From an uncultured virus (IMG/VR IMGVR_UViG_3300009512_000012) (taxonomy: Duplodnaviria > Heunggongvirae > Uroviricota > Caudoviricetes), in IMG/VR virus record IMGVR_UViG_3300009512_000012: a stretch of DNA of 20,000 nt; one strand, 5' to 3'. The translations under genes were made by a program, and so were the position numbers. Under the pieces are notes generated by a model. It saw only the letters and a program-made list of their open reading frames with translations, was not told where the DNA came from and ran no database searches. Positions 6,103-20,000 of the stretch are shown piece after piece. Positions within the stretch are counted from its first letter, which is position 1. Each line of letters begins with the position of its first letter.

Positions 6103-7596
6103 TTAAAACTCTATAATTAATTTTATGTCTTCGGTTTGGTCTGAAACTCTTTGTATTGGTTGTCTGTTTTCTAAGTACACAATGTTACCACTATCTGGTT
6201 GTAACTCGGGTGTTGCATAACCACTAGTGAAGGTAATAGTATTTCCACCAGTAAGTGTAACTGTATTCGAACTATCAGAAATTGGGGCAGCAACAGCACT
6301 TGAAGTAGAACCTGTTACATTATTTGTGCCACTAAATGCTACAAACGATTGTGTTGTAGTTGCAGTTCCATAAGTTGAAAATCTTTCTTGTTGATAATAT
6401 AATATTTTGTTAGTAGAATCCCACTCAACAACTCTACCAATAGCACCAGTAGTTGTTTGAGTAATTTGTTCATCGACTGAAAATGTACCAGATGCTGAAG
6501 CAAATTTAACAGCATAAGTCATTCTAGCTGTTGATGCAGTTGCCACTGTTGTTGTACCATAAGTCGTAGGGTCTACAACAAGTCCAACATTTCTAAAATC
6601 ATTTGCAGTTGTTACGTCATCACCCTCTGCTTGTGTTAATGTTGTATTGGTCATTACAAAGTGTCCACCTAATTCATTTATCGCATTGTTGCCATGACCG
6701 TCAAAAGGTGAGATAACTATTCTTATTGCTCCACCAGAACCTGAACCAATACTTGTTGAAGAAGATAATGCTGTATCAGAAAAGACATTTGTTAATGAAA
6801 CGTTTCCAAAAGTATAATTTGTACTACCTGCATGAATTGTTGTATCAGTTCCAGCAGTTAAACCAAATGAAGCAATAGCCCCACCTGCAATAGTAATACG
6901 TACAATACCACCAGAAGATGTTCCTTGACTTGTACCATCACCAAAAATTGGAGAGTAGTATGTTCCGTTTGTATAACCTGAACCTGCTGTTACTATAAGA
7001 GATTCAATTTTACCAGCTACGGCCGCAGTAGAAACAGTTGTATCTGTAGATACTGGCATATAATCATTAGTTAAAAATTTTGCACCTTGTGATGCTGTAA
7101 TATTGTACATGTATTTTAAAACATATCCACCAGATGAGAACGGTGATGTACTAGTAGAAGTAGGTTCTGAACCCGAATAAGCAATTCCACCATTGTTATC
7201 TAATACTTTATAGACATTTTGAGTTGATGTTATAAAGTAAAAATTACCTTGATATATCGAAGAGGCACCACTTGTTGTTGTATTTGATGCTGAGATTGTA
7301 TCATCATACATATCGTAAACTGTATTGTTAGCCCAGTTAACTCTTGGAAGAGCGTTAGAGATATTTGAACTTGAAATATTTTTTGCAGCTATCATAGCAT
7401 CCCATGAATAAAACTCACCTGAAACTGAATCGGCAGGTGTTGGAGGTGCTGCGTCTGTTCCCCCTGATGTGCCTGATGTGTAAGGCATTGATTTACCTAT
7501 AAAAAGATAATATGTTGATTTTGAAGTTTCAGAGAATGATTCAACGAATTGTGTGGCGTTGTGTAATCTGAATTTTTCTGTAATAATAGCTGTCAT
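6103..7596 (-). CDS. gp8: Baseplate wedge subunit gp8-like
   Basis: 497 aa with MTAIITEKFRLHNA, YYLFIGK, PRVNW...YDMY, VYKVLDNNGG, GYVLKYMY, GHGNNAINELGG and the C-terminal YLENRQPIQRVSDQTEDIKLIIEF, all typical of T4-like gp8. Synteny fits. Confidence 0.9.
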   Translation of the reverse strand: MTAIITEKFRLHNATQFVESFSETSKSTYYLFIGKSMPYTSGTSGGTDAAPPTPADSVSGEFYSWDAMIAAKNISSSNISNALPRVNWANNTVYDMYDDTISASNTTTSGASSIYQGNFYFITSTQNVYKVLDNNGGIAYSGSEPTSTSTSPFSSGGYVLKYMYNITASQGAKFLTNDYMPVSTDTTVSTAAVAGKIESLIVTAGSGYTNGTYYSPIFGDGTSQGTSSGGIVRITIAGGAIASFGLTAGTDTTIHAGSTNYTFGNVSLTNVFSDTALSSSTSIGSGSGGAIRIVISPFDGHGNNAINELGGHFVMTNTTLTQAEGDDVTTANDFRNVGLVVDPTTYGTTTVATASTARMTYAVKFASASGTFSVDEQITQTTTGAIGRVVEWDSTNKILYYQQERFSTYGTATTTQSFVAFSGTNNVTGSTSSAVAAPISDSSNTVTLTGGNTITFTSGYATPELQPDSGNIVYLENRQPIQRVSDQTEDIKLIIEF

Positions 7597-7614: not shown

Positions 7615-7622
7615 TATTTATA
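7615..7622 (-). promoter_or_regulatory. T4-type late promoter TATAAATA (proximal)
   Basis: Exact TATAAATA on the minus strand, 18 nt upstream of the gp8 ATG. Confidence 0.8.
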
Positions 7623-7626
7623 CAAA

Positions 7627-7634
7627 TATTTATA
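7627..7634 (-). promoter_or_regulatory. T4-type late promoter TATAAATA (distal, tandem copy)
   Basis: Second exact TATAAATA offset 12 bp from the first, in the same 44-bp intergenic gap. Confidence 0.7.
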
Positions 7635-14540: not shown

Positions 14541-14986
14541 TATCGTAATCTCTCTAAAAATAAATCCATTTCTACCATCTCGGTAGGTGTATTTCTAACA
14601 TAGAAATCTACAGTCACACTGTAAGCATTTCTGTCATAATCAGGTGTGCATCTTACAGCTTGTAATTTAGCACGAGGTTCGAAGTTACGAATAACATCTT
14701 CAACTTTTCTTGCAAGGACAACACCAGTAATAGGTGTCATGTTTTCAAATAACATATCACGTATACCAGAACCAATTTCTGGGTGAAAATGTTTTTCAAA
14801 TGGATTCAATAATACTAAATTACGTATAGAACGTTTGACTGCCTGTACGTCTTCAATAACATTGATATCTGAGTTTGAGTTTTTCCTAGCAAAAAATAGG
14901 TCTAAATCAGAATATACTTTTGTAACTTTACTTGATGCATTGGTTGACTGTGCATCAGAACCTTTATCACCTACAATATGTGTCAT
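14540..14986 (-). CDS. gp25: Baseplate wedge / sheath initiator gp25
   Basis: 148 aa with YSDLDL, AVKRSIRNLVL, EKHFHPEIGSGIRDMLFE and IRNFEPRA, ending in LERLR. The stop overlaps the gp6 start (TAATG). Confidence 0.93.
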   Translation of the reverse strand: MTHIVGDKGSDAQSTNASSKVTKVYSDLDLFFARKNSNSDINVIEDVQAVKRSIRNLVLLNPFEKHFHPEIGSGIRDMLFENMTPITGVVLARKVEDVIRNFEPRAKLQAVRCTPDYDRNAYSVTVDFYVRNTPTEMVEMDLFLERLR

Positions 14987-15007: not shown

Positions 15008-15015
15008 TATTTATA
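15008..15015 (-). promoter_or_regulatory. T4-type late promoter TATAAATA
   Basis: Exact octamer between the gp5 stop and the gp25 start, followed by a GGAG Shine-Dalgarno. Confidence 0.8.
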
Positions 15016-16576: not shown

Positions 16577-17362
16577 TTAGGATGCGATGTAGTTATTGTA
16601 AGTATCAACCCATCCATGCCATGTTGATTCTGTTACAGGGTCAGCTCCCATAAATGTACAAAGTGCTTCGTAGTGTGTCGTGTTCTTTGCAATAATTAAA
16701 TCTTGACAAAGTTGAAAGTTTTTGCTATCATCAGGATGCAATGTTTTTAATTTTATCATTGCTTCTGTGCGTTGTGCCCACCATGCATCGGTGATGTCTG
16801 TATTAGAATCTTTTGTACGAGATGCTTGTTCACGAGCTTTGAAAGTTGTTGTCCAAGACGCATGAGTAAAATCATCCCAAGTTAAAAAGATAACTTTTGC
16901 TCCAGCACCTGTGATAGTATCATAAGTGTTTGCAATATTGGAAGGTGTCCATGTTATACCTGTTGGGTCAATCACACCAGGGTAGTGTATACCACCTCCA
17001 TAGATGTCATTAGACATTGCACCTTGATAAATGAAAGGAAGGTCTTCGACAACTGTAGGACAAGCACTTCCCTTATCCCAATCAGCGTCTATTGTATTTT
17101 GAACTTGTTCGTTTGTATCTGCAAGTTTTCCACTCAAGAAAGATGAGTTAAAGGTTTCAGGATTTGCTGGGCCGTACATAACATTTATGTATGTGTTGTC
17201 TTGAATTTTCCAAGATTTAAAAGGAGCTTCAGGTCTATCACCTTCTCCGTCATTATTTGCTTTTGCAATCCAATCATCCGTATAGGATAAAGTCTTTGCA
17301 ATAATATAAAAATTTAAATCAATAAAATCATTATGATTATGTGATAAACAAAAATACGCCAT
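16577..17362 (-). CDS. Hypothetical protein, possibly a degenerate sulfotransferase-like fold
   Basis: 261 aa with an AAGGAG SD and a late promoter upstream. GAKVIFLTWDD and YEALCTFMG resemble sulfotransferase C-terminal motifs, but no PAPS-binding loop is recognisable. Confidence 0.6.
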   Translation of the reverse strand: MAYFCLSHNHNDFIDLNFYIIAKTLSYTDDWIAKANNDGEGDRPEAPFKSWKIQDNTYINVMYGPANPETFNSSFLSGKLADTNEQVQNTIDADWDKGSACPTVVEDLPFIYQGAMSNDIYGGGIHYPGVIDPTGITWTPSNIANTYDTITGAGAKVIFLTWDDFTHASWTTTFKAREQASRTKDSNTDITDAWWAQRTEAMIKLKTLHPDDSKNFQLCQDLIIAKNTTHYEALCTFMGADPVTESTWHGWVDTYNNYIAS

Positions 17363-17380
17363 TAGTAAGAACTCCTTTAG

Positions 17381-17482
17381 TTAAGTTACAAGTTTATTTA
17401 TAATGCCAAAAGGCCCCAACAACAGAAATACTATCAAAGAAAGAAAACGCTCAGAACGCTTCGCTCGGAAATCGATATTCAT
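17381..17482 (-). CDS. Putative 33-aa hydrophobic peptide
   Basis: MNIDFRAKRSERFLSLIVFLLLGPFGIINKLVT. The start overlaps the zf-CHCC stop (ATGA). It has a basic N-terminus and a hydrophobic stretch, and it spans the late promoter. Confidence 0.4.
   Translation of the reverse strand: MNIDFRAKRSERFLSLIVFLLLGPFGIINKLVT
17395..17402 (-). promoter_or_regulatory. T4-type late promoter TATAAATA
   Basis: Exact octamer 32 nt upstream of the 261-aa ORF start. Confidence 0.75.
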
Positions 17483-17628
17483 TTCTTAATAAACTTTCTA
17501 TTACAATACCCACAGACAACCTCAGATTGTTTCTTGAGAGAGTAATAGACAGTCGGATGTCCTAAGTCACCCTCTCCTCCGTCACACTTGATACTGTCAG
17601 ATGTTACATAGAGTATTTCAAATGCCAT
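17479..17628 (-). CDS. zf-CHCC zinc-finger protein (NDUFS6/NUMM complex I accessory subunit-like), 49 aa
   Basis: Manual translation gives MAFEILYVTSDSIKCDGGEGDLGHPTVYYSLKKQSEVVCGYCNRKFIKK. It has the exact C-x8-H-x14-C-x2-C spacing with the CDGG...LGHP.VY...CGYC...F signature. It is shorter than any ORF in the track. Confidence 0.88.
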   Translation of the reverse strand: MAFEILYVTSDSIKCDGGEGDLGHPTVYYSLKKQSEVVCGYCNRKFIKK

Positions 17629-17701
17629 AGAATAATAATACGGAAATCAGTATGAGAGACATGACCATATACTTTTGATATTGTTTCTTTGGGTCTTGCA
17701 T
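17618..17701 (-). CDS. Putative 27-aa single-pass membrane peptide
   Basis: MQDPKKQYQKYMVMSLILISVLLFYGI. It starts 4 nt after the upstream stop and overlaps the zf-CHCC start by 11 nt. Confidence 0.5.
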   Translation of the reverse strand: MQDPKKQYQKYMVMSLILISVLLFYGI

Positions 17702-17705
17702 AATA

Positions 17706-17891
17706 TTACTTATATGTTAACATACCAAATTTGTTAAACTTATATAATCTTTCTGCAATTGTGACACCATCCTGTCCAAATTCCTCTTGACATGCTTTGA
17801 TACAAGATTCCTTAGAGACGTTACTGTCTTTTAACGATTGTGCAAACTCTGTTATAATCTGTTCTTTAGTTGTGAGTTTTGGTATTGACAT
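17706..17891 (-). CDS. Hypothetical protein (61 aa)
   Basis: ORF with a GAAGGAG SD inside the upstream gene, in a tightly packed operon. Confidence 0.7.
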   Translation of the reverse strand: MSIPKLTTKEQIITEFAQSLKDSNVSKESCIKACQEEFGQDGVTIAERLYKFNKFGMLTYK

Positions 17892-18084
17892 GAAAGTACT
17901 CCTTCAACCAATCTTGCAAATAATGTATAGTATCATCATAGCCAACCAAATCCCATGACTGGTTAGATTGTAAACAGTTCTCAACTGCTGTGTCTAGAGA
18001 AATCTCTTGAGATTCTATTCTCTTGATTTGTGCGTTAAGAAAGTTCTCTGCTTCATCCCAAAAATATGCCATTGTTTTACTCAT
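17866..18084 (-). CDS. Hypothetical acidic early protein (72 aa)
   Basis: Has an AAGGAG SD and its own sigma70-like promoter directly upstream. Confidence 0.75.
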   Translation of the reverse strand: MSKTMAYFWDEAENFLNAQIKRIESQEISLDTAVENCLQSNQSWDLVGYDDTIHYLQDWLKEYFHVNTKTHN

Positions 18085-18116
18085 AGTGTATGTACTCCTT
18101 ATTGTTGATTCATTCT

Positions 18117-18145
18117 ATTGTATCAGTAATTGTTTATGTTGTCAA
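18117..18145 (-). promoter_or_regulatory. sigma70-type early promoter
   Basis: TTGACA-17 bp-TACAAT with an extended -10 TG and an upstream A-tract. It overlaps the last codons of the upstream ORF. Confidence 0.85.
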
Positions 18146-18302
18146 GTTTTTTAACAGTAAATTTAACTCCAAGACTTTTCAATCTTGCATTTTCTTTTTC
18201 AGCATCTTCAGGTGTCTGAAAAATATGTTCTACTTGTTCATCTTCTAAATCTAGATTTAAAGTATTCTCTTCGTAAGTTCTTTGATATAAGTGTATATTC
18301 AT
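18123..18302 (-). CDS. Hypothetical early protein (59 aa, start revised to MNIHLYQ)
   Basis: The ATG at 18302 follows a GAGG SD and lies downstream of the promoter. The longer ORF-track start falls inside the -35 box. Confidence 0.7.
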   Translation of the reverse strand: MNIHLYQRTYEENTLNLDLEDEQVEHIFQTPEDAEKENARLKSLGVKFTVKKLDNINNY

Positions 18303-18333
18303 TATGTAACCTCTCGTTTCATTGATTAATTTT

Positions 18334-18362
18334 ATTGTACCAGAAATTCTTCTCATTGTCAA
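18334..18362 (-). promoter_or_regulatory. sigma70-type early promoter
   Basis: TTGACA-17 bp-TACAAT with an extended -10 TG and an upstream A8 tract. Confidence 0.85.
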
Positions 18363-18400
18363 GTTTTTTTTATATGCATTTAAGTGTAAGAGTTAGCGCT

Positions 18401-18520
18401 AGTTTTAAGGGGGGTGGGGTGTGACAAGTTGTACTGGTTGTAAAATAGTACAGAATAGTATAGGGAATCTACATTGCATTTATAGATTACATATAACACA
18501 CCAGTTTAAAGGGTGGGGGT
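18401..18520 (+). repeat. Two imperfect direct repeats ending in G-tracts
   Basis: AGTTTTAAGGGGGGTGGGGT (18401-18420) and AGTTTAAAGGGTGGGGGT (18503-18520). Confidence 0.7.
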
Positions 18521-18524
18521 TACG

Positions 18525-18776
18525 GTAGCATATAGCACAACGGCCCTTCGCATAGTTAGACGACTAACATCAAAAGGGCCATATGCTTAGACACAAAGGT
18601 CTTACAAGGGGCCGAGACACTCTCAACTTCCACCCCACACTCTGATATCGAGAACTTTCAGGCATCACCATAACTAGGAGGTCAAAGAATGCCTTACGTG
18701 GGCCACCAAACTACCTTAATGAGAGAGCCTCGGTGGTAATCATCTGGTACTTTTGCAATTGCTCAACCATATGATG
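18525..18776 (-). ncRNA. Candidate structured non-coding RNA (family not recognised)
   Basis: Lies directly downstream of a strong promoter, is GC-enriched and has no long ORF. It has about six adjacent helices whose imperfect pairs are G-U on the minus strand. The boundaries are approximate. Confidence 0.55.
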
Positions 18777-18781
18777 TCTTT

Positions 18782-18810
18782 ATAGTAACATAACTCTACG
18801 TATATGTCAA
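18782..18810 (-). promoter_or_regulatory. sigma70-type early promoter
   Basis: TTGACA-17 bp-TACTAT with an extended -10 TG and an AT-rich upstream region. It points into the non-coding structured region. Confidence 0.8.
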
Positions 18811-18843
18811 GGGTTAATTAAATAAAAAAAATATTCATTTTAC

Positions 18844-19059
18844 TTATATTGATAATTTTTCGTATTTAACTTCTTCAAGACCACAAGGTCCACCAACAAG
18901 TAGGTCTTCTCCTACGTTTAACATAGCAAAATCTTTTTCCCACTCGTCTCCCATGTAGGCGTCTAAACCAAAATCTTTGATTTCTTCAAAAGAAAAAACC
19001 TTAGATGTGCCATCTGCATCGCCATAACCAGATAACCAAGTAACTTTAAAATTGTTCAT
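18844..19059 (-). CDS. Hypothetical acidic early protein (71 aa, start revised to MNNFKV)
   Basis: The ATG at 19059 follows an AAAGGA SD. The ORF-track start lies within the promoter. Confidence 0.75.
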   Translation of the reverse strand: MNNFKVTWLSGYGDADGTSKVFSFEEIKDFGLDAYMGDEWEKDFAMLNVGEDLLVGGPCGLEEVKYEKLSI

Positions 19060-19086
19060 AATGTATCCTTTCGATTTCATAAGATT

Positions 19087-19115
19087 ATAATACATGGTTT
19101 TAGGGTAAATGTCAA
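19087..19115 (-). promoter_or_regulatory. sigma70-type early promoter
   Basis: TTGACA-17 bp-TATTAT, with an overlapping TATAAT shifted 3 nt downstream. Confidence 0.75.
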
Positions 19116-19138
19116 GGGTTTAGTTGGTTATTAATGTC

Positions 19139-19254
19139 ACATGTACTGTATATACCTCTTTATCAGCTAGAACGAAGCGCTGACCTCGAGATGGAACAGC
19201 TGTAATTGCAGTAATCATATGAATGCTATAGCTATACCCCTCAGGTACAGTACC
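19139..19254. repeat. Palindrome-dense element bounded by an 8-bp inverted repeat (possible small RNA or DNA element)
   Basis: GTACTGTA (19143-19150) and TACAGTAC (19246-19253) form the ends, and eight perfect palindromes of 6 bp or more lie within ~115 bp. Confidence 0.6.
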
Positions 19255-19255
19255 T

Positions 19256-19283
19256 ATTATACACAGAATGTCAGGCTTGTCAA
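19256..19283 (-). promoter_or_regulatory. sigma70-type early promoter
   Basis: Perfect TTGACA and TATAAT with a 16-bp spacer. Confidence 0.75.
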
Positions 19284-19383
19284 GGCCTTTCTTGGTTATT
19301 CTCGTATTATTTGTGAGTATGTGTGGAAATATTAGCCGATAGGCCGCAGACTTTAATCACATAGACCGGTCGAACACCTATGT

Positions 19384-19557
19384 TTATTTAAGCCTTTTTC
19401 TTAACTGTCCGAAATGGGTGTATATTCGATAAAATACATGTGGTACATACATTGGATAACTCATATTCCCTTTGATATGCCATAGACATCCAAAGAATCT
19501 ACCCTCAATATGACTATATCCAACGATTCGGAAAATATTACTTCTATTCTGTATCAT
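19384..19557 (-). CDS. Hypothetical basic protein (57 aa, start revised to MIQNRS)
   Basis: The ATG overlaps the 3' end of the upstream ORF by 14 nt. The longer start would overlap it by about 100 nt. Confidence 0.5.
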   Translation of the reverse strand: MIQNRSNIFRIVGYSHIEGRFFGCLWHIKGNMSYPMYVPHVFYRIYTHFGQLRKRLK

Positions 19558-19735
19558 TTCTCTTTTTAGGTAAGCAATCAGGGTTTCTAGCTTGTATACT
19601 GTCAAATAGGTCTTTTCTTGGTGATTTTCCTTTTCTCTCATCTCTCATTCTTTTGGAATGTTCATAAGAGATTCTTAGTATTTCTTCTTCTTTTGGAAAC
19701 TCTTCGTCAAAGTACTTTGTTTCTTCGTTCATCAT
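19544..19735 (-). CDS. Hypothetical protein (63 aa)
   Basis: ATGA overlap with the upstream ORF; charged sequence. Confidence 0.65.
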   Translation of the reverse strand: MMNEETKYFDEEFPKEEEILRISYEHSKRMRDERKGKSPRKDLFDSIQARNPDCLPKKRNDTE

Positions 19736-19926
19736 AGGAATTCTTTCTCATCATTACTATACTTCATAATGTAATCGTACATGAACTGATGAGCCATTGC
19801 GTTAGGATGTTCTGTCTTCAGCGCTTCGTGTCCTGTTGTATTAGCAATGTCATCTGATATAGGGCCGATGAAGTTTCGTATTCTCCATTCGCCATTGGGA
19901 AATGCTTTTCTTAATTCATGTTTCAT
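19732..19926 (-). CDS. Hypothetical protein (64 aa)
   Basis: GAGGA SD and ATGA overlaps at both ends. Confidence 0.65.
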   Translation of the reverse strand: MKHELRKAFPNGEWRIRNFIGPISDDIANTTGHEALKTEHPNAMAHQFMYDYIMKYSNDEKEFL

Positions 19927-20000
19927 TGTTGTTCCTCATACCTACTCCATGCCGGCATGAGAAAGAGTATTTTGTCATAGTTCTCATTGTGTTTTACATA
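19923..20000 (-). CDS. C-terminal fragment of a hypothetical protein (5'-truncated)
   Basis: The open frame ...YVKHNENYDKILFLMPAWSRYEEQQ* ends in an ATGA overlap with the next gene. Confidence 0.5.
   Translation of the reverse strand, partial: YVKHNENYDKILFLMPAWSRYEEQQ

Follow-up and report, generated by a model that had tools for sequence, protein, structure and literature searches.

A structured RNA family with its own promoter in the tRNA and early-gene region of marine T4-like phages

What does a strong sigma-70-type promoter produce when the roughly 400 bases that follow it are free of open reading frames (ORFs)? This question is raised by a locus on the minus strand of the window, meaning the whole stretch of 20,000 nucleotides analysed here, from an uncultured virus (IMG/VR IMGVR_UViG_3300009512_000012). 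A preliminary description, made from the sequence of the window, had proposed that the locus encodes a promoter-driven non-coding RNA of about 250 nt with several helices. The explanation favoured here, with a probability of roughly 0.45, is that the locus is a gene in its own right, for a stable and highly structured non-coding RNA that would act in trans, its fixed loop and junction binding a protein of the expression machinery. This RNA belongs to a family found in marine T4-like (pelagimyophage-related) phages, and its anatomy is that of a gene; its maturation, stability, and partner are what we infer.

The locus, its promoter, and its neighbours

Genes for the baseplate hub, the baseplate wedge, and related structural proteins, as assigned with PHROGs, occupy the minus strand of the window, and these baseplate genes identify its source as a marine T4-like myophage. 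The closest isolates by DNA are Pelagibacter and Methylophilales myophages and cyanophages, with 65–75% identity in short stretches of baseplate genes only, and the nearest virus record is a 12.7-kb fragment from which the RNA region is absent. Upstream of the structural genes lies a run of small ORFs, each preceded by a sigma-70-type promoter; promoter-like sites within 17000–20000 number 11 against 13.5 expected from shuffles and are thus not enriched. The small proteins around the RNA element fall into no informative Pfam or PHROGs family, except for a zf-CHCC domain and a 2OG-Fe(II) oxygenase downstream. Among the small early genes, a 49-aa ORF (17479–17628, minus strand) carries a zf-CHCC zinc-finger domain with an E value of 3e-15.

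Two promoters delimit the locus:

18782–18810, minus strand: sigma-70-type early promoter (TTGACA, 17-nt spacer, TG-extended TACTAT; 10/12)
18334–18362, minus strand: promoter of the next cassette (11/12, with TG), which is the outer limit of the RNA and not part of it

The first of these is the promoter named in the preliminary description, TG extension included, and it is conserved across the family: of the distinct upstream regions, 17 were long enough to judge, and each of these has a TTGACA-17-TAnnnT promoter 57–79 nt upstream of the internal-loop block. Its spacing predicts a transcription start near 18775. The longest ORF between the two promoters has at most 39 aa, in agreement with the earlier statement that no long ORF is present, and the raised GC content that had been noticed amounts to 0.48 in 18500–18724 versus about 0.28–0.38 in the surroundings. 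The choice of the minus strand also holds, since the 251-nt RNA folds with −78.5 kcal/mol (z −2.16) on that strand and with −59.6 kcal/mol (z −1.28) on the plus strand. As had been argued from the imperfect pairs, many of the conserved pairs are G-U wobbles, and on the opposite strand these would read A-C.

The neighbourhood of the RNA is far less constant than its promoter. Directly upstream, a gene for a 71-aa protein (18844–19095), with a promoter of its own, is missing at the same site in L021, a relative 95% identical to the window. Relatives of this gene occur in 20 other viral loci with varied surroundings; as none of these loci holds the RNA, the latter counts as an independent cassette. 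Downstream, its partner differs by locus and can be a small ORF, tRNA-Arg, tRNA-Asp, or tRNA-Ala, while the 261-aa downstream protein, used as a search anchor, led to just three close relatives. The RNA thus moves as a cassette among differing neighbour genes. The early region itself shows shuffling of promoter-bearing cassettes, as seen for the 71-aa gene between the window and L021. Further upstream, in the stretch 19110–19290, a perfect sigma-70 promoter (19283–19256, minus strand; 12/12) is followed by about 140 bases without an ORF. These bases open with a short G-rich motif that is conserved in other sequence types, where it lies directly upstream of the RNA cassette, behind an equivalent promoter. 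On the minus strand, the stretch could encode another small transcript or represent a very short leader.

A family with a covarying core

Relatives of the element come from contigs of uncultured viruses and from marine metagenomes. An exact 39-mer search returned two near-identical contigs, one of them without the 71-aa gene, and an 18-mer from the G-rich segment returned a divergent relative type, in which the syntenic flanking proteins are 31–41% identical and the non-coding blocks 72–82%. Gapped patterns yielded 17 viral loci, 16 of them true members, and 29 metagenome loci; a second, relaxed viral scan later added one more true member, L115, together with five unrelated loci. These five (L105, L106, L107, L112, and L116) share with one another a different well-conserved stretch, which precedes a small cysteine-rich ORF; they do not match the family model and are unrelated to the RNA. 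The covariance model R1, built from 24 distinct cores, matches 36 loci of roughly a dozen sequence types, including all 29 metagenome loci, and gives 74.5 bits to L115, which lies outside its training set. None of six chance loci is matched. One metagenome locus shows no difference from the window in the 410-nt core region that was compared. Among bacterial and archaeal genomes (185,579 species), the patterns gave eight hits, about the number estimated for chance, and model R1 matches none of them. The whole genome of the Methylophilales phage Melnitz is not matched by R1 either. In the collection of isolated phages, a blastn search with two family members found the promoter alone, in Prochlorococcus phages, or chance hits, so that at blastn sensitivity no cultured phage there carries this RNA.

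The core of the family measures about 120 nt and consists of the helix P2, an invariant purine-rich internal loop, and the helix P3 with a three-way junction. In the window it lies behind a 5' hairpin, as follows:

18739–18775, minus strand: P1, hairpin starting at the predicted 5' end (minimum free energy, MFE, fold)
18720–18733, minus strand: P2, 5' strand of the long-range closing helix, pairing with 18625–18612
18703–18719, minus strand: J2/3, purine-rich internal-loop strand UUAAGG..GUGG (near-invariant alignment columns)
18634–18702, minus strand: P3 (18702–18697 with 18639–18634), closing a three-way junction (covariation alignment) and enclosing P3a (18694–18660), the junction strand GAAAGUU (18659–18653), and P3b (18652–18640)
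18626–18633, minus strand: J3/2, 3' internal-loop strand GUGGAAGU (invariant in the alignment, but required by the search patterns)
18612–18625, minus strand: P2, 3' strand (consensus fold and covariation)

RNAalifold, run on a plain MAFFT alignment that had not been fitted to any structure, returns four helices: P2, P3, P3a, and P3b. In this alignment 95.5% of cells are paired, compared with 70.4% in shuffles, and the covariation score of 0.660 (0.218 in shuffles) is reached by 0 of 500 shuffles and falls to 0.05–0.13 when the partners are slid by 1–3 columns. The homologues do carry compensatory changes, with 15 of the 23 consensus pairs changing on both sides. In P2 these are eight of nine pairs, with 94% of cells paired and up to four pair types at a position, and both-sided changes are also found in all four pairs of P3a and in three of the four of P3b. 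P3 itself does not vary, and the search patterns prescribed its 3' strand, so that the alignment is consistent with this helix and lends it no further weight. The hairpin P1 has counterparts elsewhere, as 14 of the 16 distinct leaders folded have a 5'-terminal hairpin of unrelated sequence in their MFE structure, and one can be read by eye in the L064/L073 type.

Contrary to the helices, which covary, the nucleotides of the loop and the junction are fixed. The internal loop between P2 and P3 is asymmetric, and both of its strands, like the junction strand GAAAGUU, scarcely vary. Part of this invariance was imposed, given that the junction strand, the 3' strand of P3, and J3/2 were required by the search patterns. 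The main patterns did not require the block of J2/3, which makes the invariance of this 5' loop strand informative. L115, found with a pattern that did not require J3/2, carries a variant there.

Folding energy contributes little to this picture. The 251 nt do fold better than shuffles (z −2.16), the check proposed in the preliminary description, but the signal comes from one lineage-specific hairpin: by segment, the long hairpin has a z of −4.78, the 3' part of −1.28, and the conserved core of −0.02. Thermodynamics alone is therefore insufficient to make the case, and since the core folds no better than shuffles, it is covariation alone that carries its structure. Seen against the consensus, about half of the fold first proposed was wrong. 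The CCCAC/GUGGG helix, which is P3 (18702–18697 with 18639–18634), and its inner AGGCAU/AUGCCU hairpin are present throughout the family. Two other proposed helices, CCACCGA/UUGGUGG and GUUGAGA/UCUCGGC, are alternatives that are not kept in relatives and that the comparative data reject: their strands belong instead to P2 and to the invariant single-stranded loop. The AGAC/GUCU helix is confined to the window's own sequence type.

The covariation also bears on whether the locus works as an RNA at all. The 19-codon ORF noticed at its 5' end (18770–18711) exists and overlaps P1, P2, and the internal loop, but it has no counterpart in other sequence types. The locus might be a decayed or tiny protein gene, such as this ORF, or a recombination spacer between promoter cassettes, as the cassette-shuffled early region would allow. 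This explanation is already disfavoured and scarcely credible: compensatory changes are seen in about a dozen types, the nucleotides are better conserved than the flanking proteins, and no ORF is common to different sequence types in the leaders compared, those of L065 and L079 (distinct, though of one sequence type) lacking any ORF of 15 or more codons.

The 3' region, nested tRNAs, and RNA libraries

Beyond the core, the window contains a long hairpin and three conserved blocks:

18534–18587, minus strand: long hairpin in the first variable region (z −4.78)
18504–18520, minus strand: block D, a C-rich tract followed by UUUAAAC, with position and make-up conserved across types
18464–18490, minus strand: block E, a 12-nt invariant sequence including TATAAA (invariant alignment columns)
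18409–18419, minus strand: block F, a second C-rich tract repeating D just before the next cassette (conserved)

These three blocks follow the core in every member of full length. The preliminary description had ended the RNA at 18525, and the element is larger than that, as its conserved blocks run 3' to about 18409. Block E is present in 34 of 35 distinct loci, the single miss being a locus that ends at a contig edge, and the 20-kb window has no further C-rich tracts like D and F. A helix on both sides of block E, suggested by visual reading of several types, was dropped because the consensus fold of the D-E-F region contains 0 pairs and single-sequence folds disagree.

Two regions of the element are variable, from the core to D and from E to F, and both are filled with lineage-specific inserts such as the long hairpin of the window, about 100 nt in the L067 type, or tRNA-Asp in L115, L070, and L053. 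The long hairpin of the preliminary description is real and very stable, with 0 of 200 shuffles as good, but it is restricted to the sequence type of the window. In the other types its position is taken by a short linker, different inserts, or a tRNA, and judged from these sequences it is a lineage-specific insert. It does not appear in the terminator scan as an intrinsic terminator, and its stem is followed by about 20 bases that are not U-rich. No usable terminator was found between the RNA and the next promoter in scans of the window, L086, and L077.

The RNA is located in the tRNA and early-gene region, and tRNAs are sometimes nested in its variable regions. Genes for tRNA-Asp(GUC) are nested at two different sites, between the core and D in L115, and between E and F in L070 (384–458) and L053 (167–241). 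A tRNA on the same strand follows within 1.2 kb in at least 13 of 35 distinct loci (nine Arg(UCU), two Ala, and two Asp), a lower bound because some loci end early; the 20 kb of the window hold no tRNA or tmRNA gene according to ARAGORN. D, E, and F accompany the core, and a tRNA can separate them from it, as in L115. From the nested tRNAs it follows that the primary transcript would be cut by tRNA-processing enzymes, parting the core from D-E-F, which argues for the core as a self-contained unit.

Two further motifs deserve mention. TATAAATA motifs at 7616–7634, 15009–15015, and 17396–17402 (minus strand), 20–40 nt upstream of three gene starts (a baseplate wedge gene at 7596, a gp25-like gene at 14986, and the 261-aa ORF at 17362), look like T4-type late promoters. 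They comprise four TATAAAT sites, two of them in tandem, with A as the eighth base. Block E, with its TATAAA, might be read as a late promoter of this kind too, but it has G at the eighth position, and several family types have TATAAAG there. UGUUCU is repeated two or three times before block F in L061, L063, L071, L074, and L087, and such repeats also follow tRNAs in L044 and L046. This repeat may serve the phage group as a signal for processing or termination.

RNA libraries give weak support to the presence of an RNA of about 250 nt. Part of the stretch is contained in 20 of the 23 runs listed, 11 of those 20 being recorded as RNA. In each of four RNA runs, taken from four different studies, there is one short contig of 171–218 nt lying wholly within 18510–18761, from P1 to block D, at a depth of 2.8–5; the RNA-library contigs as a whole have depths of 2.6–5. 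These runs were chosen for containing the stretch, such libraries can hold DNA, and the contigs give no ends, strand, or level. Differences between the contigs and the window lie in loops or junction strands or are the same as variants in relatives. One RNA run holds an additional contig on the next gene, and a single contig, an anecdotal case, ends exactly after block D. The parts of the window without contig cover, 18350–18509 and 18762–18850, carry no weight as evidence.

The position of the RNA directly behind a promoter, the absence of a terminator of its own in the scans, and the C-rich tracts that come after the core, rare in AT-rich DNA, would also suit a cis-acting leader. In such a case, the structured RNA would modify or gate transcription into the downstream tRNAs and early genes, either by processive antitermination in the manner of HK022 put or boxA/nut elements, or as a sensor controlling the access of Rho to D and F. 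Block D may be loosely similar to boxA, and in L081 and L070 no sigma-70 promoter is visible by eye between the element and the next tRNA. However, in the window and in most types a strong separate promoter follows the element immediately, which makes read-through unnecessary, and the genes that follow show no conservation. Models for put, boxA, and riboswitches give no match, and the RNA-library contigs stop within the 5' domain, a weak point in the same direction. A cis-acting role is therefore considered unlikely.

Ribozymes and ligand sensors show conservation centred on the junction at least as typically as protein-binding RNAs do, and variable covarying helices with fixed junctions, as found here, are the usual signature of a ribozyme or aptamer. 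The invariant nucleotides could then be an active site or a ligand pocket. In one version, the G-rich loop would guide cleavage at the C-rich blocks D and F, maturing the transcript of the RNA and the tRNAs; every full-length member has both the G-rich loop strands and C-rich tracts complementary to them, and tRNAs are nested next to D and F. Nevertheless, no known ribozyme or riboswitch model matches, and in L115 the change of the loop motif from GUGG to AUUG is not accompanied by a matching change in the C-tracts, so that this single sequence does not support pairing between the loop and the tracts. A catalytic or ligand-binding RNA, in either version, appears somewhat less likely still than a cis-acting leader.

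A promoter followed by G-rich RNA segments and C-rich tracts is also what a replication-origin or primer transcript could look like, with a persistent hybrid forming at the G/C-rich tracts, by analogy with oriF and oriG of T4 or RNA II of ColE1. The excursion of the GC skew is merely local, arising from the C-rich tracts, without a lasting change of trend in 17000–20000, and both the nested tRNAs and the cassette-like presence or absence among close relatives better fit an accessory RNA gene. An origin transcript would be a very improbable explanation.

Relation to known RNAs and proposed function

The claim that the RNA is not a tRNA, tmRNA, RNase P, SRP, or riboswitch RNA agrees with Rfam 15 and ARAGORN, neither of which gives such a match. 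None of the 4227 Rfam models matches the whole window at the gathering threshold. In 18200–19000, at E ≤ 10, three weak matches appear (E 1–10, 9–15 bits against gathering scores of 37–100), mainly over the promoter and the upstream gene, outside the body of the RNA. Tested on 20 family loci, Rfam matched tRNAs alone, and ARAGORN found no tmRNA on 35 family loci, the tRNAs found there being separate genes.

By context, the closest analogue would be the stable RNAs of T4, rnaC and rnaD (species 1 and 2), non-coding RNAs located in the tRNA region of T4 beside tRNA-Arg and on the same strand. In the family described here, tRNA-Arg(UCU) follows the RNA in nine of 35 distinct loci. Contrary to the T4 RNAs, which follow tRNA-Arg, the family RNA precedes it and has its own promoter, and it lacks the tRNA-like T-arm sequence present near the 3' end of rnaC. 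Model R1 does not match the T4 tRNA-region locus at E ≤ 1.

Other comparisons are looser. GOLLD and ROOL are far larger than the family RNA, and their Rfam models do not match it. The likeness lies in their being ornate structured RNAs, often borne by phages and adjoining tRNA genes (cf. bioRxiv 10.1101/2024.12.08.627333). A closing stem with a large internal loop recalls 6S RNA, and by this analogy a redirecting of sigma-70 polymerase would be plausible, but the family RNA has a distal three-way junction and a core of merely about 120 nt, and the Rfam 6S models are unmatched. Among related marine myophages, Melnitz and pelagimyophages have a two-piece tmRNA gene directly behind an early promoter, as reported in PMC9004378. 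The family RNA shares this placement, yet it shows no T-arm or tag frame, and neither ARAGORN nor Rfam identifies it as a tmRNA.

Covariation in uncultured viral contigs is also the basis of a set of 8,495 candidate structured viral RNAs with models of 29–151 nt (PMC10690425), drawn from IMG/VR, the data source of the window as well. Two family motifs do not occur in six supplementary files of that study, a set that excludes its alignment and model files, and parts of the element could be among its candidates. The family is therefore uncatalogued in the sense that Rfam 15 and the isolate phages hold nothing of it, while a prior listing in print, in PMC10690425, is possible.

The reading as an independent gene for a stable RNA, tentative at the probability given above, draws on the conserved promoter of its own, the 5' hairpin, the covarying fold, the independence from neighbouring genes, and the tRNA and early-gene region. 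In this model, the host RNA polymerase would transcribe the RNA immediately after infection, and the primary transcript would head a unit of small RNAs and tRNAs. Trimming would leave a stable species of about 200–260 nt ending near block D, in the manner of T4 species 1 and 2 beside tRNA-Arg. The mature RNA would act in trans, with the fixed internal loop and the junction as the binding surface for a host or phage protein of the expression machinery, forming a ribonucleoprotein or serving as a decoy, and would not act by base-pairing with the neighbouring gene. Of the functions suggested in the preliminary description (decoy, antitoxin, ribozyme, or primer), no single one is favoured by any particular result of the analysis.

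The T4-like phages of streamlined marine heterotrophs are among the commonest viruses of the sea, and their early genes are almost all unexplained. Here a strong early promoter is spent on RNA instead of protein, and exact loop and junction nucleotides are kept while helices and neighbouring proteins diverge widely, a pattern that points to an RNA-based step in the takeover of the host or in the tRNA economy of the phage. What results is a defined fold, about 120 nt long, for which a working covariance model and 36 examples are available, and a second case, beside the long-unexplained species 1 and 2 of T4, of stable RNAs by phage tRNA genes. To our knowledge, the AsiA/MotA switch is absent from related marine T4-like phages. 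A more far-reaching possibility, and a long shot on sequence evidence, is that the core, produced within minutes of infection, has a functional fold new among RNAs and either is catalytic or binds the transcription or translation apparatus of the host with high affinity. As a ribozyme, it might use a guide to cut at the C-rich tracts and so mature the RNA and tRNA operon; as a binder, it might be a 6S-like trap for sigma-70 polymerase that replaces the AsiA/MotA switch. If the RNA is indeed catalytic, or binds polymerase or ribosomes, it would represent a new class.
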